NCBI GenBank assembly: GCA_964549615.1 | Contig: CAZJVP010000078.1 | Coordinates: forward strand, 1 to 48,333 | Direction of reading: 5' to 3' | DNA: 48,333 bases | Source of the DNA: an uncultured Thermococci archaeon | Lineage (GTDB): Archaea; CAYQAE01; CAYVLA01 | Shown here: piece after piece, positions 12,605-19,831 of the stretch | Position numbering within the stretch: the first letter of the stretch is position 1 | How the letters are laid out: every line of letters starts with the position of its first letter | The notes under the pieces: generated by a model | Databases searched by the model: none | What the model was told of the DNA's origin: nothing | The model's input: the letters and a program-made list of their open reading frames with translations, nothing else | Program-made: the position numbers and the translations under genes

Positions 12605-13723
12605 TCATTCCACCAGCCTGTAAAGGGTATCCCTCTGGACAGGGTCCCTTCCGAGGTCCGTGATCAGCTGCCTTATCTCGGCAGGCGTCATCGACGTGCC
12701 CGAGCATGCTCCAGCGCTCCTGGAGATGTTCTCCTCCATCAAGGTTCCGCCGAAGTCGTTTGCCCCGCAGGTCAGGGCAACTTGGGCAAGCTTCCTGCCC
12801 ATCTTGACCCAGGAAACTTGGATGTTGGGAAGGATCGAACCGAACGTGAGCCTCGCCGCCGCGATGACCCTCATGTCGTCCGCGCCCGACGGTCCGCCGG
12901 GGAGGAACGCTGATATGGGCGAAGTCCCGTGCACGAAGGGCAGTGGAACGAATTCGGTGAATCCGTGCGTGGTTTCCTGGATCGTGCGGATCCTCACCAG
13001 GTGTTGCGCCCTCTCTGCGAGGGTTTCGACGGTTCCGTACATCATCGTGCTGGTAGTCGGAATCCCCATCCGGTGTGCGGTGACAATTATCTCCTCCCAC
13101 CTGTCCGAAGAGATCTTGTTCGGGCAGATGATCCTCCTGACCCTATCCACGAGGATCTCGGCGGCGGTGCCCGGGATGCTGTCGAGCCCGGACTCGGCCA
13201 GGATGGTGAGGGTCTCCTTGGTCGAAAGACCGGCCTTCCGAGCGACGTGGTCAATCTCCATAGGAGAAAAACCGTGGACGTGGACCCCCGGCATCTCCTC
13301 CTTCACGGTCCGAAGCAGGTCCACTAGGTACGCGATGTCCGTCTGCGGGTTGATGCCCCCCTGGATGCAAACCTCGGTCGCACCGAAGGCTCTGGCCCCT
13401 CTCACTTTGTGCCGGACCTGTTCCATGTTGAGCAGGTATGCATCCGGGTCCGCGGGATCGCGGGCAAAGCCGCAGAAAGCGCACCTGCAGCTGCACACGT
13501 TGGTGAAGTTAATGTTGCGATTCACAACGTAGGTCACGACGTTGCCGACGATCCTATCCCGCAGGGCATCCGCGGCAAGGCACAGGATGGAGAACTCCCG
13601 GCCTTTGGCCCTCAGCAGGGTTTCCACCTCGGAGGCTCGCAGGCGCTCACCAGCAAGTCCTCGGAGGACGGCCTCCTTGAAAGCAGGATCGATCTGGGGT
13701 AGCTCGCCTATGTCGAGAGCCAT
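12605..13723 (-). CDS. cofH: FO synthase subunit CofH
   Basis: TYVVNRNINFTNVC, CxxxCxxC, PGTAAEIL, TMMYG, NIQVSWVK, NDFGGTLMEENIS. Confidence 0.95.
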   Translation of the reverse strand: MALDIGELPQIDPAFKEAVLRGLAGERLRASEVETLLRAKGREFSILCLAADALRDRIVGNVVTYVVNRNINFTNVCSCRCAFCGFARDPADPDAYLLNMEQVRHKVRGARAFGATEVCIQGGINPQTDIAYLVDLLRTVKEEMPGVHVHGFSPMEIDHVARKAGLSTKETLTILAESGLDSIPGTAAEILVDRVRRIICPNKISSDRWEEIIVTAHRMGIPTTSTMMYGTVETLAERAQHLVRIRTIQETTHGFTEFVPLPFVHGTSPISAFLPGGPSGADDMRVIAAARLTFGSILPNIQVSWVKMGRKLAQVALTCGANDFGGTLMEENISRSAGACSGTSMTPAEIRQLITDLGRDPVQRDTLYRLVE

Positions 13724-14880
13724 AGACCCTCCTCGCGAAGGGTTTCCATCTTCGAGATCCACGTTCTTGCCCTGGCCAGAATCCGAGGCGACAAGAACTC
13801 GGGCCGCACAAATGTCGGGTAAACTGGCGGCCGCATGTGCAGGCGCAGCCCCATCGAGGAAACCCTCTTAAAGATTTCTTCCTCTCGACACCACGCCGCT
13901 TCAGGGTTTATGTAGTCCGGGGTGAGCGGGGACAGCCCTCCGAGGTCGTTGGCTCCCGCGTTGAGGAAGGCTTCGAATTCCGGCTCTATGTTCGGCGGCA
14001 CCTGGAGGTTCATGGATGGCCCAAAGATCAGCCTGGCGACCGAGAATATGTTGAGCATCAGGTCCGTCGAGGGGGGGCAGGCGGACGCCATGGGGGTCCC
14101 GGGTTTGGGGACGAACCTTTGAATGATTATTTCCTGAATATGGCCGAACCTGTCCTGTATCGACTTCAGGACCATCAGCGAGCGGACGATTTCGCGTTCG
14201 GTCTGCCCTATCCCTATGAGAAGGCCGGTGGTAAACGGAATTCTAAGCTTGCCAGCCTCCTCGATGGTTCGGATTCTTCGTCCCGGATTCTTGCCCGGAG
14301 ACCCTTCGTGCGGCATCCCTTTTCCGCCAAGCCTTGGGCTCGCATCCTCGAGCATCAGGCCGAGGCTTGCGTTCGTCTCCTTCAATCTCTCAAGCTCATC
14401 CGGATCGAGCACGCCCACGTTCGTGTGGGGCAGGAGCCCGGTCTCGTCAAGCGTCTTCTCGCAAAGCCATGCAACATAATCCGGCGTTGAACGAAAGCCC
14501 TGGCCTTTCAAGAAGGCTCGGGCCCGCGGGTAAACGTGCTCTGGCCTCTCCCCAGACATGAAAAGTGCCTCGCAGCAACCCAGCTCTTGGGCCCTAGAGA
14601 GCGTCCGGGAAATCTCCGGCCAGCCCAGGAAACTCCCGGCATCGCTTCTAAAGCCGCAGTAATGGCACCGGTTCCTGCACAGGTTTGTCACCGGGATCGT
14701 GACGTTCCGAGAGAAGGTGACGGCCCTCCCGGTCCGGTCCTTGGCGATTTGACGAAGCCTGTCGTGTGCCGGGTGCGGCAATGTTAGTAGAAATTCAGCC
14801 TCGTCTTCGCTGGGGGGTTCCTTCCCAAGCCTGTTCCAGTCAATGGTTGGCTGAGGATGAGCTTGCTCGGATCTCATCAA
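13708..14880 (-). CDS. cofG: FO synthase subunit CofG
   Basis: TFSRNVTIPVTNLCRNRCHYC, LLPHTN, FTTGLLIGIG, QVPPN, DLGGLSPLTPDYINPE. Confidence 0.95.
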   Translation of the reverse strand: MMRSEQAHPQPTIDWNRLGKEPPSEDEAEFLLTLPHPAHDRLRQIAKDRTGRAVTFSRNVTIPVTNLCRNRCHYCGFRSDAGSFLGWPEISRTLSRAQELGCCEALFMSGERPEHVYPRARAFLKGQGFRSTPDYVAWLCEKTLDETGLLPHTNVGVLDPDELERLKETNASLGLMLEDASPRLGGKGMPHEGSPGKNPGRRIRTIEEAGKLRIPFTTGLLIGIGQTEREIVRSLMVLKSIQDRFGHIQEIIIQRFVPKPGTPMASACPPSTDLMLNIFSVARLIFGPSMNLQVPPNIEPEFEAFLNAGANDLGGLSPLTPDYINPEAAWCREEEIFKRVSSMGLRLHMRPPVYPTFVRPEFLSPRILARARTWISKMETLREEGLWLST

Positions 14881-15562
14881 TGATCTCTCCTAGCCTCGCA
14901 ACCGAGGCCTCGAAGAAGGCCTTTCCCTTCTGCTCGGACGCAAACGCGGCTCCGCCGAAGGAGCCGACCGAGGTCAGTTCCTCGGAGCGCCAACCCCTTA
15001 GGTAAGCCTTCCCGCCCTTGATGGAGATGCTCTCCCTCGGTCCATTGTCGGACGGGCGTACGAGGCTGGGTCCTATGAAAAGCATCATCGATGTCTCGAA
15101 CTCCCCAGCGTGCTCCATTCCAAGCTCGCTCTGACCTGTCGCTGCCAGCATGGTGTCGTGCATGACCCTCCAGAAGTGGATAGGGGTTACATTCCGTCTT
15201 TGCATCTCCCTCACGAGCGCTTCCAATGCGGGGGAGTTGCCCCCGTGGAAGTTCACGATGTAGATTCGCTTGAACCATCTTCCGAGGCAAGCGACCGTTC
15301 CCTCGACCAGGTCTAGGAAGACCTTCATCCCGATGTCGATCGTGCCGGGGAAGTTGGCGTGTTCGGGCGAGAATGGGAGTGAGAGGGTGGGGCAGACCGC
15401 CATCCGCTTCCTCGCGGCAACCTCGTCGCAGACCGTTTCGGCTATCAGGCTGTCCGTTCCGAGCGGAAGATGGCGCCCGTGCTGCTCAGTGCTTCCTACC
15501 GGAAAGATGACTTCTTCGAATTCGCCCACCTGCTCGCAACTCATCTCCGAGAGCCTACCCAT
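14840..15562 (-). CDS. arfB: Creatininase family; probable FAPy formamide hydrolase ArfB
   Basis: PVGSTEQHGRHLPLGTD, NFHGGN, HAGEFETS; lies inside the riboflavin operon. Confidence 0.8.
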   Translation of the reverse strand: MGRLSEMSCEQVGEFEEVIFPVGSTEQHGRHLPLGTDSLIAETVCDEVAARKRMAVCPTLSLPFSPEHANFPGTIDIGMKVFLDLVEGTVACLGRWFKRIYIVNFHGGNSPALEALVREMQRRNVTPIHFWRVMHDTMLAATGQSELGMEHAGEFETSMMLFIGPSLVRPSDNGPRESISIKGGKAYLRGWRSEELTSVGSFGGAAFASEQKGKAFFEASVARLGEIIDEIRASSSSANH

Positions 15563-16220
15563 TCTTGCCACCTTTCACCTTGAACGTCAATACCACGTCT
15601 TCGCCGCACCTTGCGACGTCGCAGAGATCGAGCCTGAATGCTTCCTCGATCCTTGAGATCCCATCCCCCTCCACCAACGTGACTGCATCGCGGCCGCCGA
15701 TAACCAGCGGCGCTATTGCGATCGATATCTCGTCAACCAGCCCGGCCTCCAACATGCTCCAGTTGAGATTGCCCCCGCCCTCAAGAAGGATCCGTCTCAG
15801 TCCCCTCTTATGCAGCTCGCTCAGAAGTTGATTCAGGTTCACCTTGGACTCCCCCACGATTATCACCTCGGCCTTACCTGAGAGCTCCCCGATCCTCAGT
15901 GGATCCGCCCTCTTTGAGGCCGCGATGATGATCTTGCCAGGGAAGCGGAATATCCTTGCATTCGAAGGGGTCCGAAGCGAGCTGTCCACGACTATCCTCG
16001 CGGGCGGGGCCCCGGCTCGGGCCGTCTTGAGCCTCAGCGACGGATCGTCGGCGAGGAGGGTGTTTATTCCTATCATTATGCCGTCCACGGAGGCCCTGAG
16101 CTTCTGAGTTCTCTCAAGATCCTCCGGGCACGAGATCCTAGCTCTCCCCGCCTTGGTCGCTATCTTTCCGTCTAGGCTCATTGCGGCGTTGAGGATGACG
16201 TATGGCCTGTCCAGCGTCAT
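15555..16220 (-). CDS. arfC: 2,5-diamino-6-ribosylamino-4(3H)-pyrimidinone 5'-phosphate reductase
   Basis: AMSLDGKIA, GINTLLADDPSL, LLEGGG; stand-alone reductase with no deaminase domain. Confidence 0.92.
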   Translation of the reverse strand: MTLDRPYVILNAAMSLDGKIATKAGRARISCPEDLERTQKLRASVDGIMIGINTLLADDPSLRLKTARAGAPPARIVVDSSLRTPSNARIFRFPGKIIIAASKRADPLRIGELSGKAEVIIVGESKVNLNQLLSELHKRGLRRILLEGGGNLNWSMLEAGLVDEISIAIAPLVIGGRDAVTLVEGDGISRIEEAFRLDLCDVARCGEDVVLTFKVKGGKNG

Positions 16221-17326
16221 CCTCCTTTCCTCCCGTCTAGGATGATGCGCCCGTCTTTGACTACGAGCGCGACGTTCTCGGGACCCGCCCTCTTGACTAT
16301 GGCAGCGTGCACATCGTTGGCATAGCTCATCGTCTTGCGCCTCTGGAGTACGACTAGGTCCGCCGCCTTTCCCTCTTCTATCGCTCCCCTTTGTGGCCAG
16401 ATTCCGGCGACCTTCGCAGCAGCAGAAGTGGCCATCTTCAGCACATCTCTGGGTCGCTTGTCTTTCATGATGGCCAGCGCCATCTCCATCTCCCTGAAAA
16501 GGTTGGGTGAGCTGATCATGCAGTTGTCCGTTCCGAGGCCAAACTCGACCTCTTCGTGCAACAGTCGATCGATTGGCGGAAGGCCCAGCCCCAGCGAGAA
16601 GTTGCAACGCGGACAGACCGCGGCTTTCTTGCCCCTGTCTGCAATCGTCCGAATCTCCCCCGGCTTGGCGTGCGTGAGATGCACAAGGATGTCCGCGTCG
16701 AGCGACTCGACGGCTCGCTCAATCTCTCCCGGTCTCCAGCGGGCCTCGAGGACGTGAACCGCAACCCTGCTCTTCGAGGCGGCTCTTCGGATCTCCTTAA
16801 GCCCCTCATCGCTGTAAGCCGTCACCCTGTCGAGGCCTATGCCGTCGGCAACCCTCAGGATTTCGGACGTCTCCTGAAATAGATCGGCTTCCGCCCCCTT
16901 GGGTCTACCGTATGCGAGGCCCCTGATCTTTCTTATGGCTTCTCTGAAAAGCAGCACGCCGGGCAAGCCCTGTTCCCTGAAGTCGAGAAAGGATGTCGTT
17001 CCGCACGCGACCATCTCGTTCTCGGCGGCCGACATTCCAGCTACCAGCTCCTCGGGTTTTGCCCGACGAAGGAGCACGTGTTTCAAGCCGCTTGGGCTCT
17101 TCACAAGCTCATCCAGCGATAGATGCATCCCCATGTCCTTGAAGCGGTAGTCGCCTATGTGCGTGTGGCAGTTGATGAGCCCCGGCATGACCAAGGCCTT
17201 GGCTCGGCAGTTTCTGGTCTCCACCACCTCCCGGATGAGCCCCGATTCGACGACGACGTACCCTGGGATAGGCTCAAGCTCCTCGCCGGCTAGGATGAGG
17301 CCTCGCAAGATCAAGGGACCAATCAC
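16217..17326 (-). CDS. Amidohydrolase superfamily, deaminase subtype
   Basis: PGLINCHTH, VHVLE, VHLTH, CPRCN, LGTDN, G.IEEGK.AD. Confidence 0.88.
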   Translation of the reverse strand: MIGPLILRGLILAGEELEPIPGYVVVESGLIREVVETRNCRAKALVMPGLINCHTHIGDYRFKDMGMHLSLDELVKSPSGLKHVLLRRAKPEELVAGMSAAENEMVACGTTSFLDFREQGLPGVLLFREAIRKIRGLAYGRPKGAEADLFQETSEILRVADGIGLDRVTAYSDEGLKEIRRAASKSRVAVHVLEARWRPGEIERAVESLDADILVHLTHAKPGEIRTIADRGKKAAVCPRCNFSLGLGLPPIDRLLHEEVEFGLGTDNCMISSPNLFREMEMALAIMKDKRPRDVLKMATSAAAKVAGIWPQRGAIEEGKAADLVVLQRRKTMSYANDVHAAIVKRAGPENVALVVKDGRIILDGRKGG

Positions 17327-17337
17327 GCGCCCGATCT

Positions 17338-17793
17338 CTACTCGATCACCAGAGGCGTCTCGGTCGACTGCTTGGATGCCTGCCTCATCCTCCGCGTCAG
17401 CTTGACCGCAGCCTCGACGGATCTCTTGGCGTACTCGTCGATCCTCGCCGTTGCTTGGGCCCGCGTCATCCTCGGCCCTGCCACCCCTAGTGCCACTGGC
17501 TTGTCGAACTCCAAAGCAAGGTCGGCTATCTTCCGGCTCACCTGGGCCGAGACAACCTTGTCATGCTCGGTTTCGCCCTCGATGACCATGCCGAGTGTGG
17601 CGACGGCGTCTACGTCCTTCCTCTTCAGAAGCGCCCTTATGGCTAGGGGCATATCGAAAGCCCCGGGCACCTTGAAGACCACGTTCACCTTTGCGCCGAG
17701 GAACTTCGCGTGTTCCAATGCCCTCTGCAGCATCAGGGCAGTCAGGTCGTAGTTGAACTCCGACACGACGATGCCTAGATTCACGCTTTCCAT
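17338..17793 (-). CDS. ribH: 6,7-dimethyl-8-ribityllumazine synthase
   Basis: [30 protein letters not shown]. Confidence 0.96.
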
Positions 17794-17807: not shown

Positions 17808-18955
<1,148 letters not shown>

Positions 18956-18960
18956 GCAGC

Positions 18961-19039
18961 TTCTCGAAAAAGAGTAACAGAAATATCTTGCCCTAAACGC
19001 GCCATACGCGATGCGGTGCGGTATACTCATCGGTGGGTA
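18961..19039. promoter_or_regulatory. Two imperfect palindromes (consensus TACTC-N6-GAGTA) in the ribB/HAD divergent region
   Basis: TTCTCgaaaaaGAGTA at 18961-18976 and TACTCatcggtGGGTA at 19024-19039, each 5-6 nt from a start codon. Confidence 0.5.
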
Positions 19040-19045
19040 GATAGG

Positions 19046-19831
19046 ATGTCGCTCGCAGCCCATATCCAGGCTTATCAGGGTTTCATACTCGACTTGGACG
19101 GCGTAGTCTATCTTCGAAAATTCGTGGTGCCAGGAGCCCCGCGATTCGTCGAAGAGCTCAAGGCGGGCGGAAAGAAATTCGTCTTTCTGACAAACAACTC
19201 AAGCAGGACGAGGGACGAGTACGCCGAGATCCTGTCTGGGTTTGGAATCGATGTGGATAGGGACCAAATCGTCACATCCGGCTACGCAACCTGTCTCCAC
19301 ATTCTCAGAAGGAAGCCAAAGGCTAGGATCCATGTGGTGGGCGAGAAGGGCCTTCTGCAGGAGCTGTCGAGCGCGGGCTTCCGCATCGTCAAGAAGCCTC
19401 CGGCGGACTACGTGGTCGTGGGCATCGACCGACATTTCACCTACTGCAAGCTTGCGCTCGCGGCCCATACGATCCGACAGGGTGCCAGGTTCGTGTCCAC
19501 GAATAGGGACGCCACATACCCGACGGAGGACGGCCCCTACCCCGGCGCTGGCAGCATCGTTGCAGCCGTGCAGACGGCTTCCGGGAAGAGGCCCACCGAT
19601 ATTGGCAAGCCGAACAGAGCGATCTTCGACATGTGCAGGGTCATCCTTGGGACCCCTCCAGGGAAGACTGTGGTGATCGGGGACCGCATCGAGACCGACA
19701 TCTTGGGTGGACAGAGGGCAGGCATGCACACCATCCTGGTCCTTTCCGGCGTGACCACCCTTGGCCAGCTGCGCCCGGGAAAGGTGCGACCGGACCTAGT
19801 GGTTGGCTCGGTGGCGGATCTGTTGGCCTAG
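19046..19831 (+). CDS. HAD-IIA (NagD-like) phosphatase
   Basis: DLDGVV, LTNNS, GKP, IGDRIETDI motifs. Confidence 0.92.
   Translation: MSLAAHIQAYQGFILDLDGVVYLRKFVVPGAPRFVEELKAGGKKFVFLTNNSSRTRDEYAEILSGFGIDVDRDQIVTSGYATCLHILRRKPKARIHVVGEKGLLQELSSAGFRIVKKPPADYVVVGIDRHFTYCKLALAAHTIRQGARFVSTNRDATYPTEDGPYPGAGSIVAAVQTASGKRPTDIGKPNRAIFDMCRVILGTPPGKTVVIGDRIETDILGGQRAGMHTILVLSGVTTLGQLRPGKVRPDLVVGSVADLLA

Follow-up and report, generated by a model that had tools for sequence, protein, structure and literature searches.

The locus described here raises the question of which enzyme deaminates the pyrimidine intermediate in the archaeal branch leading to riboflavin and coenzyme F420, a branch in which the deaminase and the phosphatase, and in some lineages, this one among them, also the GTP ring-opening step, are without an experimentally assigned enzyme. 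The window, i.e., the whole stretch of 48,333 nucleotides (nt) that was analyzed (contig CAZJVP010000078.1 of assembly GCA_964549615.1, from an uncultured Thermococci archaeon), carries on its minus strand eight closely packed genes in the order ribB-ribC-ribH-X-arfC-creatininase gene-cofG-cofH (Table 1), X being a gene of the amidohydrolase superfamily. An earlier note, made from the sequence alone, had proposed that X is the missing archaeal deaminase and that its fold is not related to that of RibD/Rib2, and the absence of a RibD-type deaminase, the linkage to arfC, and the predicted fold argue in favor of this proposal. We consider it likely that X encodes a metal-dependent hydrolytic deaminase that acts on the product of ArfC in the riboflavin/F420 precursor branch. 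The idea is not new, the family having already been proposed in print for the deaminase step, and ours is a rediscovery; X adds a member, from a phylum that is seldom sampled, to a published candidate family that is already found in annotation systems.

The open reading frame of X was judged to be real. It has a GTG start and encodes 369 amino acids (aa), and a TTG six codons downstream provides an alternative start that would give a 363-aa form. Only amidohydrolase families were matched by its product, with Pfam Amidohydro_1 (PF01979) covering residues 45–361 at 128.6 bits, and the best NCBIfam model was NF005552 (PRK07213, "chlorohydrolase") with 272.3 bits, the runner-up reaching 93 bits. 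The motifs H54-x-H56, H191-x-x-E194, and G265-T-D267-N268, together with H216, are invariant in an alignment of 39 family members (30–73% identity) that has 21 invariant columns, including H54, H56, D59, K82, H191, E194, H216, N242, D267, and N268. The Pfam match and these motifs confirm what had been described from the letters alone, namely an amidohydrolase with HxH, HxxE, and GTDN motifs within a rib/cof cluster, and so does a reading of the sequence at its downstream end, where the stop codon of X (TGA, 16219-16217) and the start codon of arfC (ATG, 16220-16218) overlap as ATGA, with AGGAGG just before. At the other side, 11 nt separate the end of ribH from the start of X. X is probably co-transcribed with arfC, with translational coupling between the two. 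A fusion of X to ArfC or to other proteins was not seen among proteins of 647–2000 aa (no match at E <= 1e-15), and RibD_C domains were found in none of the 120 matches listed (202–646 aa), both results of the fusion search being weak evidence.

The AlphaFold2 model of X (predicted local distance difference test, pLDDT, 95.6; predicted template modeling score, pTM, 0.94) has the (beta/alpha)8 barrel and the small beta-sandwich domain that characterize the mononuclear deaminase branch of the superfamily. Foldseek matches had a probability of 1.00, template modeling scores (TM-scores) on the query of 0.78–0.87 and 17–24% identity, and they comprised adenosine and methylthioadenosine (MTA) deaminases, AtzA, the isocytosine deaminase Vcz, Tm0936, guanine deaminases, and also imidazolonepropionases. 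By sequence, the closest of the 31 PDB entries at E <= 0.001 was Tm0936 (E 3.6e-15, 24% identity). The expected active-site set is complete, with the HxH motif, the His of HxxE on what we take to be strand 5, a His on strand 6 and an Asp on strand 8; H54, H56, H191, E194, H216, and D267 are invariant in all 58 rows of the X clade and conserved at 97–100% in paralogues. In quick trees (LG+G4, without bootstrap, support by the Shimodaira–Hasegawa-like approximate likelihood ratio test, SH-aLRT) this X clade is set apart from 33 paralogue rows resembling MTA and S-adenosylhomocysteine (SAH) deaminases with an SH-aLRT of 100, unchanged with 80 versus 33 rows. Six residues are found only in the X clade when compared with the paralogues: D59, G80, E118, R240, N268, and R346. 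The paralogues have Trp at position 80 in 97% and Gly at 268 in 94%, with Met at 59 and Phe at 118. From the conservation pattern, these six residues and K82 may contact the substrate at its diaminopyrimidinone ring, its ribityl chain, and its 5'-phosphate.

From the gene itself, its motifs, fold, clade, synteny, and co-occurrence with arfC, we infer the substrate, the order of the steps, and what individual residues do. As judged from its superfamily, X would be a mononuclear metal-dependent amidohydrolase in which H54, H56, H191, and D267 would hold the metal, and protons would be shuttled by H216 and by E194, the Glu of HxxE. Water would be added at C2 of 2,5-diamino-6-ribitylamino-4(3H)-pyrimidinone 5'-phosphate, the product of ArfC, and ammonia would leave to give 5-amino-6-ribitylamino-uracil 5'-phosphate; the dephosphorylated product would then go to RibH, for riboflavin, and to CofH/CofG, for FO (7,8-didemethyl-8-hydroxy-5-deazariboflavin) and F420. 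The guanine and isocytosine deaminases among the fold matches presumably (judging in part from entry titles) remove the 2-amino group of a 2-amino-4-oxopyrimidine ring, and since these structurally related enzymes do such chemistry X would be suited to the C2 deamination that the pathway requires.

The proposal had been made to depend on the absence of a RibD-type deaminase elsewhere in the genome, and scans with PF00383 and with the RibD model found none in the assembly to which the window belongs (3.2 Mb, 104 contigs, 99.46% complete). The single PF00383 match is a protein of 162 aa that is ComEB/deoxycytidine monophosphate (dCMP)-deaminase-like, with 138.8 bits versus 25.4 bits on the RibD model (cut-off 156.35), and on this basis a RibD/Rib2-type enzyme elsewhere in the genome was ruled out. 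ArfC, a protein of 221 aa, has RibD_C (PF01872) as its sole domain and is, as had been noted, without a RibD deaminase domain. The other PF01979 protein of the genome is a dihydroorotase, and X is the only deaminase-type amidohydrolase that it encodes.

Gene neighborhood and phyletic co-occurrence had been named among the ways to check the proposal, and in both respects X adjoins or tracks arfC across several archaeal phyla. We searched X loci with a profile built from a 10-sequence alignment, and co-occurrence is given as counts and not as statistics because related genomes are dependent samples. Within its own phylum X was present in all five genomes of the collection searched, adjoining arfC in the genome of the window and, of the four relatives, in three. 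Among 81 Asgard genomes, 33 had X (32 at >=228 bits and one split across contig ends) and 37 had arfC, which lies directly downstream and on the same strand in 33/33 of the genomes with X. For Thermoproteota, with 151 genomes of which 69 had arfC (E <= 1e-10), 42 genomes reached at least 194 bits on the X profile; all 42 were arfC-positive, and 31 of them have the two genes no more than 2 kb apart. Another 20 weaker X-like frames came from other arfC-positive Thermoproteota, 19 of them falling within the X clade (two of these in rib clusters), which brings the arfC-positive genomes with an X-clade member to 61/69, 42 by score and 19 by tree. When the top match from each of 17 arfC-negative genomes and from one more arfC-positive genome was placed on a tree, all grouped with the paralogues (18/18); of the 41 arfC-negative genomes with any match, the tree covered these 17, which had the higher scores.

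Loci from metagenomes show the same association, with arfC at most 300 nt downstream of X in 51/80 and arfA at most 300 nt upstream in 43/80. In species-representative genomes, rib or cof genes lie within 8 kb of X in 14 of 80 loci, and these come from Bathyarchaeia, three Asgard classes, Nitrososphaeria, Hecatellales, Methanolobus, and Methanotrichaceae; arfA was located between ribH and X in each of the six genome loci checked with Pfam. As a separate observation, the arfC match beside X in one Asgard genome (G203:C109:44408-45040) has two in-frame stops (TGA and TAG), which may reflect either a disrupted gene or a fault in the assembly.

The earlier note had left room for a prior assignment in the literature, and a proposal does exist, made in 2010 and 2017 and listed as a prediction in 2021. 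Rodionova et al. (2017; PMC5397151) presented the same family as the archaeal deaminase candidate "PyrD", a prediction that in their words "remains to be tested", and cited Osterman, Overbeek and Rodionov (2010, book chapter) for the earlier proposal of the candidate. The PyrD genes in their supplement (PMC5397151) include MJ0699, HVO_2483, MA4095, Nmar_1613, MMP1380, VNG6258C, and others, the SEED role of the candidate is "Pyrimidine deaminase archaeal predicted", and HVO_2483 was still given as a prediction by Pfeiffer and Dyall-Smith (2021). An archaeal deaminase is not mentioned in the passages found of a 2026 review of the pathway. By an indirect test, based on gene order, spacing, and plasmid location, X is orthologous to the PyrD genes of 2017. 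The thaumarchaeal order ribB-ribH-(cyclohydrolase)-pyrD-(reductase) of the supplement is that of two of our X loci (L044 and L050), and in Methanosarcinales ArfC and PyrD are three locus tags apart there, a spacing that agrees with X loci L024 and L076. The megaplasmid pNRC200 of Halobacterium salinarum carries exactly one X homologue (NC_002608.1 198414-199433, L085), which fits the pNRC200-style tag VNG6258C, and the single X homologue of the H. borinquense plasmid pHBOR03 (NC_014736.1 57256-58272, L086) fits the second tag listed for that species. Overall, X homologues were seen on 17 haloarchaeal plasmid records, an unusual place for a supposedly essential cofactor gene.

The published candidate also bears on which of the two reactions comes first. 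PyrD is labeled EC 3.5.4.26 in Table 1 of Rodionova et al. (2017; PMC5397151), i.e., as an enzyme that would follow the bacterial order and deaminate 2,5-diamino-6-ribosylamino-4(3H)-pyrimidinone 5'-phosphate before reduction by ArfC. X does precede arfC, both here and in the 33 Asgard genomes with X, and a ribosyl and a ribityl substrate look alike on everything computed here. Against this, the archaeal route is described as reduction first in the introduction of the same paper, citing Graupner et al. (2002), and the order of reactions is not dictated by the order of genes, so that we give deamination of the ribosyl compound a low probability.

Several points weigh against X being the deaminase of the ArfC product. 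The whole case for it is comparative, and the literature searched (with subscription journals outside the search) yielded no assay or knockout of any family member. X falls under the equivalog cut-off of NF005552 (272.3 versus 294 bits), which is a database threshold and not a biological criterion, NF005552 still being the best family by ~179 bits. Rib neighbors within 8 kb of X were absent from 46/46 halobacterial and from most methanogen loci. No verified X was found in 8 of the 69 arfC-positive Thermoproteota and 4 of the 37 arfC-positive Asgard genomes, the arfC match being weak in two of the former eight and two of the latter four. The table of Rodionova et al. (PMC5397151) shows Archaeoglobi with arfC and without PyrD, and as their supplement lists arfC and RibBA in this group, with PyrD and RibD both absent, another deaminase solution may exist there. 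The genome to which the window belongs is without ArfA and RibA, which leaves the upstream supply of substrate unexplained. Finally, the residue signature alone does not fix a riboflavin substrate, because a bacterial subclade with the same residues sits in non-riboflavin clusters.

This bacterial-context clade (12 rows, SH-aLRT 99) lies inside the X family. The catalytic and clade-specific residues are kept in 14/14 of the bacterial-context proteins checked, 12 of which are identical to the X of the window at 18 checked positions, the other two differing only at 239, beside R240. In two loci, L127 (4875-8146) and L130, X has a PfkB kinase on one side and a gene of the pseudouridine-5'-phosphate glycosidase family on the other (psuK-X-psuG). 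Locus L134 (1979-11943) is a sugar catabolic operon with the order GntR-ATP-binding cassette (ABC) transporter-X-Zn-dehydrogenase-FGGY kinase-DeoC aldolase-Fe-dehydrogenase, and L143 (2079-9661) a pyrimidine catabolic cluster with the order ABC transporter-creatininase-X-PreA-like dehydrogenase-dihydropyrimidinase-like. These pseudouridine, sugar, and pyrimidine catabolic contexts, as well as the halobacterial loci mentioned above, would suit a general deaminase of pyrimidine bases or nucleotides (cytosine- or isocytosine-like) working in salvage or catabolism, with a secondary link to riboflavin. In M. maripaludis, moreover, an "adenosine deaminase" (MMP_RS07110) is called essential in a preprint passage, and this gene might be the X orthologue MMP1380. 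We find such a general role very unlikely for X, which adjoins and co-occurs with arfC in three archaeal phyla, is absent from the arfC-negative genomes tested, and is joined to arfC here by the ATGA overlap; an enzyme of general salvage would not be expected to follow arfC so closely. The broader reading as a pyrimidine deaminase stays alive at least for bacteria.

One step at which the locus departs from the earlier note is the opening of the ring. ArfA had been counted among the enzymes of the pathway here, and it was not found anywhere in the assembly, the best match of a tblastn with six ArfA proteins and an hmmsearch --max over open frames of at least 80 aa having an E of 0.075. Like this genome, its three family-mates yielded neither ArfA nor RibA, and RibA is present in a genome of the sister family. 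In Asgard, Bathyarchaeia, and Nitrososphaeria the slot of arfA is between ribH and X, which corresponds to 17326-17338 of the window and is here without arfA. The sole recognizable GTP cyclohydrolase of the genome is of the FolE2/MptA type (contig 19, 25035-25784). The same double gap of ArfA and RibA appears for Methanomicrobia in the table of Rodionova et al. (PMC5397151).

The gene that follows arfC had been taken for arfB. It belongs to the creatininase family, and the identification as ArfB was not backed by the NCBIfam model (20.7 bits, cut-off 180), the MftE model scoring higher with 132.8 bits. In Asgard and Bathyarchaeia loci, and in many from metagenomes, arfC is followed by homologues of this gene, and the gene may represent a distinct ArfB/BrbF-like type of formamidase. 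BrbF of S. meliloti is described as a formamidase of the creatininase family that takes the formylated intermediate as its substrate, and there too the ring-opening partner is unknown (PMC9478397).

With ArfA and RibA not found in this genome and its three family-mates, and with imidazolonepropionases, enzymes that open an imidazolone ring, among the fold matches, X could be thought to replace an earlier hydrolytic step, either by opening GTP at its imidazole ring or by carrying out the deformylation in the place of ArfB. This is extremely improbable: X directly follows arfA in the 43 metagenome and six genome loci described above, often accompanied by a creatininase-type gene, the X of the window keeps every signature residue of these arfA-linked orthologues, and its own operon includes a gene of the creatininase family. 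A role of X as a substitute for ArfA or ArfB was rejected because it co-exists with both enzymes in other lineages.

The gap may also be read jointly with the bacterial branch, as a variant pathway in a lineage without ArfA and RibA and with X belonging to a wider family of deaminases of phosphorylated pentose- or pentitol-pyrimidines. An unrecognized GTP ring-opening activity, possibly that of the FolE2/MptA-type cyclohydrolase, would feed the formylated intermediate to the creatininase-type hydrolase, and ArfC and then X would complete the pyrimidine; the bacterial members (PfkB kinase-X-pseudouridine-phosphate glycosidase) would act on an undescribed C-nucleotide or a related substrate. To this joint reading we assign a modest probability, well on the unlikely side, and deamination of the ArfC product is the interpretation that we prefer.

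The neighboring genes are collected in Table 1. The Pfam match of RibB (PF00926) begins at residue 42, and the real start of ribB may lie further inside. Divergent from ribB is a phosphatase of the haloacid dehalogenase (HAD)-IIA type, which also scores 228.6 bits, under the cut-off of 475, with the TK1734-like phosphoglycolate phosphatase family NF053752. As a candidate for the 5'-phosphatase step of the pathway it is possible but unsupported, and the idea of a phosphatase conserved with the pathway was rejected, the gene having been found beside X in 0/80 genome loci.

Table 1. Coordinates in the window of X and of the genes around it, with the matches on which each assignment is based.
Gene	Product	Position	Strand	Evidence
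cofH	FO synthase subunit, takes dephosphorylated pathway product	12605..13762	-	TIGR03551 479 bits (cut-off 374.1)
cofG	FO synthase subunit	13708..14880	-	NF004884 385 bits (cut-off 209)
	Creatininase-family hydrolase, candidate formamide hydrolase (ArfB/BrbF-like)	14840..15571	-	PF02633 189.8 bits
arfC	Archaeal diaminopyrimidine nucleotide reductase	15555..16220	-	TIGR01508 240.8 bits (cut-off 186.45)
X	Amidohydrolase-superfamily protein, candidate 2,5-diamino-6-ribitylamino-4(3H)-pyrimidinone 5'-phosphate deaminase (MJ0699/"PyrD" family)	16217..17326	-	PF01979, NF005552, motifs, fold, clade
ribH	Lumazine synthase	17338..17793	-	TIGR00114 140.1 bits (cut-off 84.6)
ribC	Riboflavin synthase, archaeal	17808..18272	-	TIGR01506 221.6 bits (cut-off 100.55)
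ribB	3,4-Dihydroxy-2-butanone 4-phosphate (DHBP) synthase	18269..19063	-	TIGR00506 192.2 bits (cut-off 177.45); PF00926 162.3 bits
	HAD-IIA phosphatase, divergent from ribB	19016..19831	+	TIGR01460 168.5 bits (cut-off 100.15)

What the window adds is breadth and not a new idea, namely a rarely sampled phylum and synteny counts for Asgard and Bathyarchaeia, together with a clade-specific set of residues and the caveat of the bacterial branch. Compared with the PyrD candidate (MJ0699, HVO_2483, MA4095, and Nmar_1613), X belongs to the same family by every indirect test, has the same proposed function, and rests on the same kind of evidence, clustering and co-occurrence. It differs in its operon, which is without arfA and includes cofG-cofH, and in coming from a phylum with five genomes in the collection searched.

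Among known relatives, Tm0936 and the MTA/SAH/adenosine deaminases of the DadD type have the metal ligands and the HxxE motif of X, but their clade is distinct from that of X (SH-aLRT 100), X differing from them at positions 59, 80, 118, 240, 268, and 346. Guanine deaminase, the isocytosine deaminase Vcz, and 8-oxoguanine deaminase have an X-like fold (TM-score on query 0.78–0.83) and the same HxH/HxxE/His/Asp set, whereas X is only 17–20% identical to them, is 60–100 residues shorter, has its own invariant D59, E118, R240, N268, and R346, and would act on a substrate with a phosphorylated ribityl chain.

RibD of bacteria and Rib2 of fungi catalyze the same class of reaction as is proposed for X, a zinc-dependent hydrolytic C2 deamination of a diaminopyrimidinone intermediate, and Rib2 acts on the very ribityl substrate that X would use (PMC8256712). 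These enzymes have the cytidine-deaminase fold (PF00383), whereas X is an amidohydrolase with a triosephosphate isomerase (TIM) barrel (PF01979) that is not fused to the reductase. If the assignment is true, a TIM-barrel amidohydrolase does in archaea what a domain of the cytidine-deaminase fold does in bacteria, plants, and fungi, which would make this step a clear-cut example of non-homologous replacement within a cofactor pathway that is universal.

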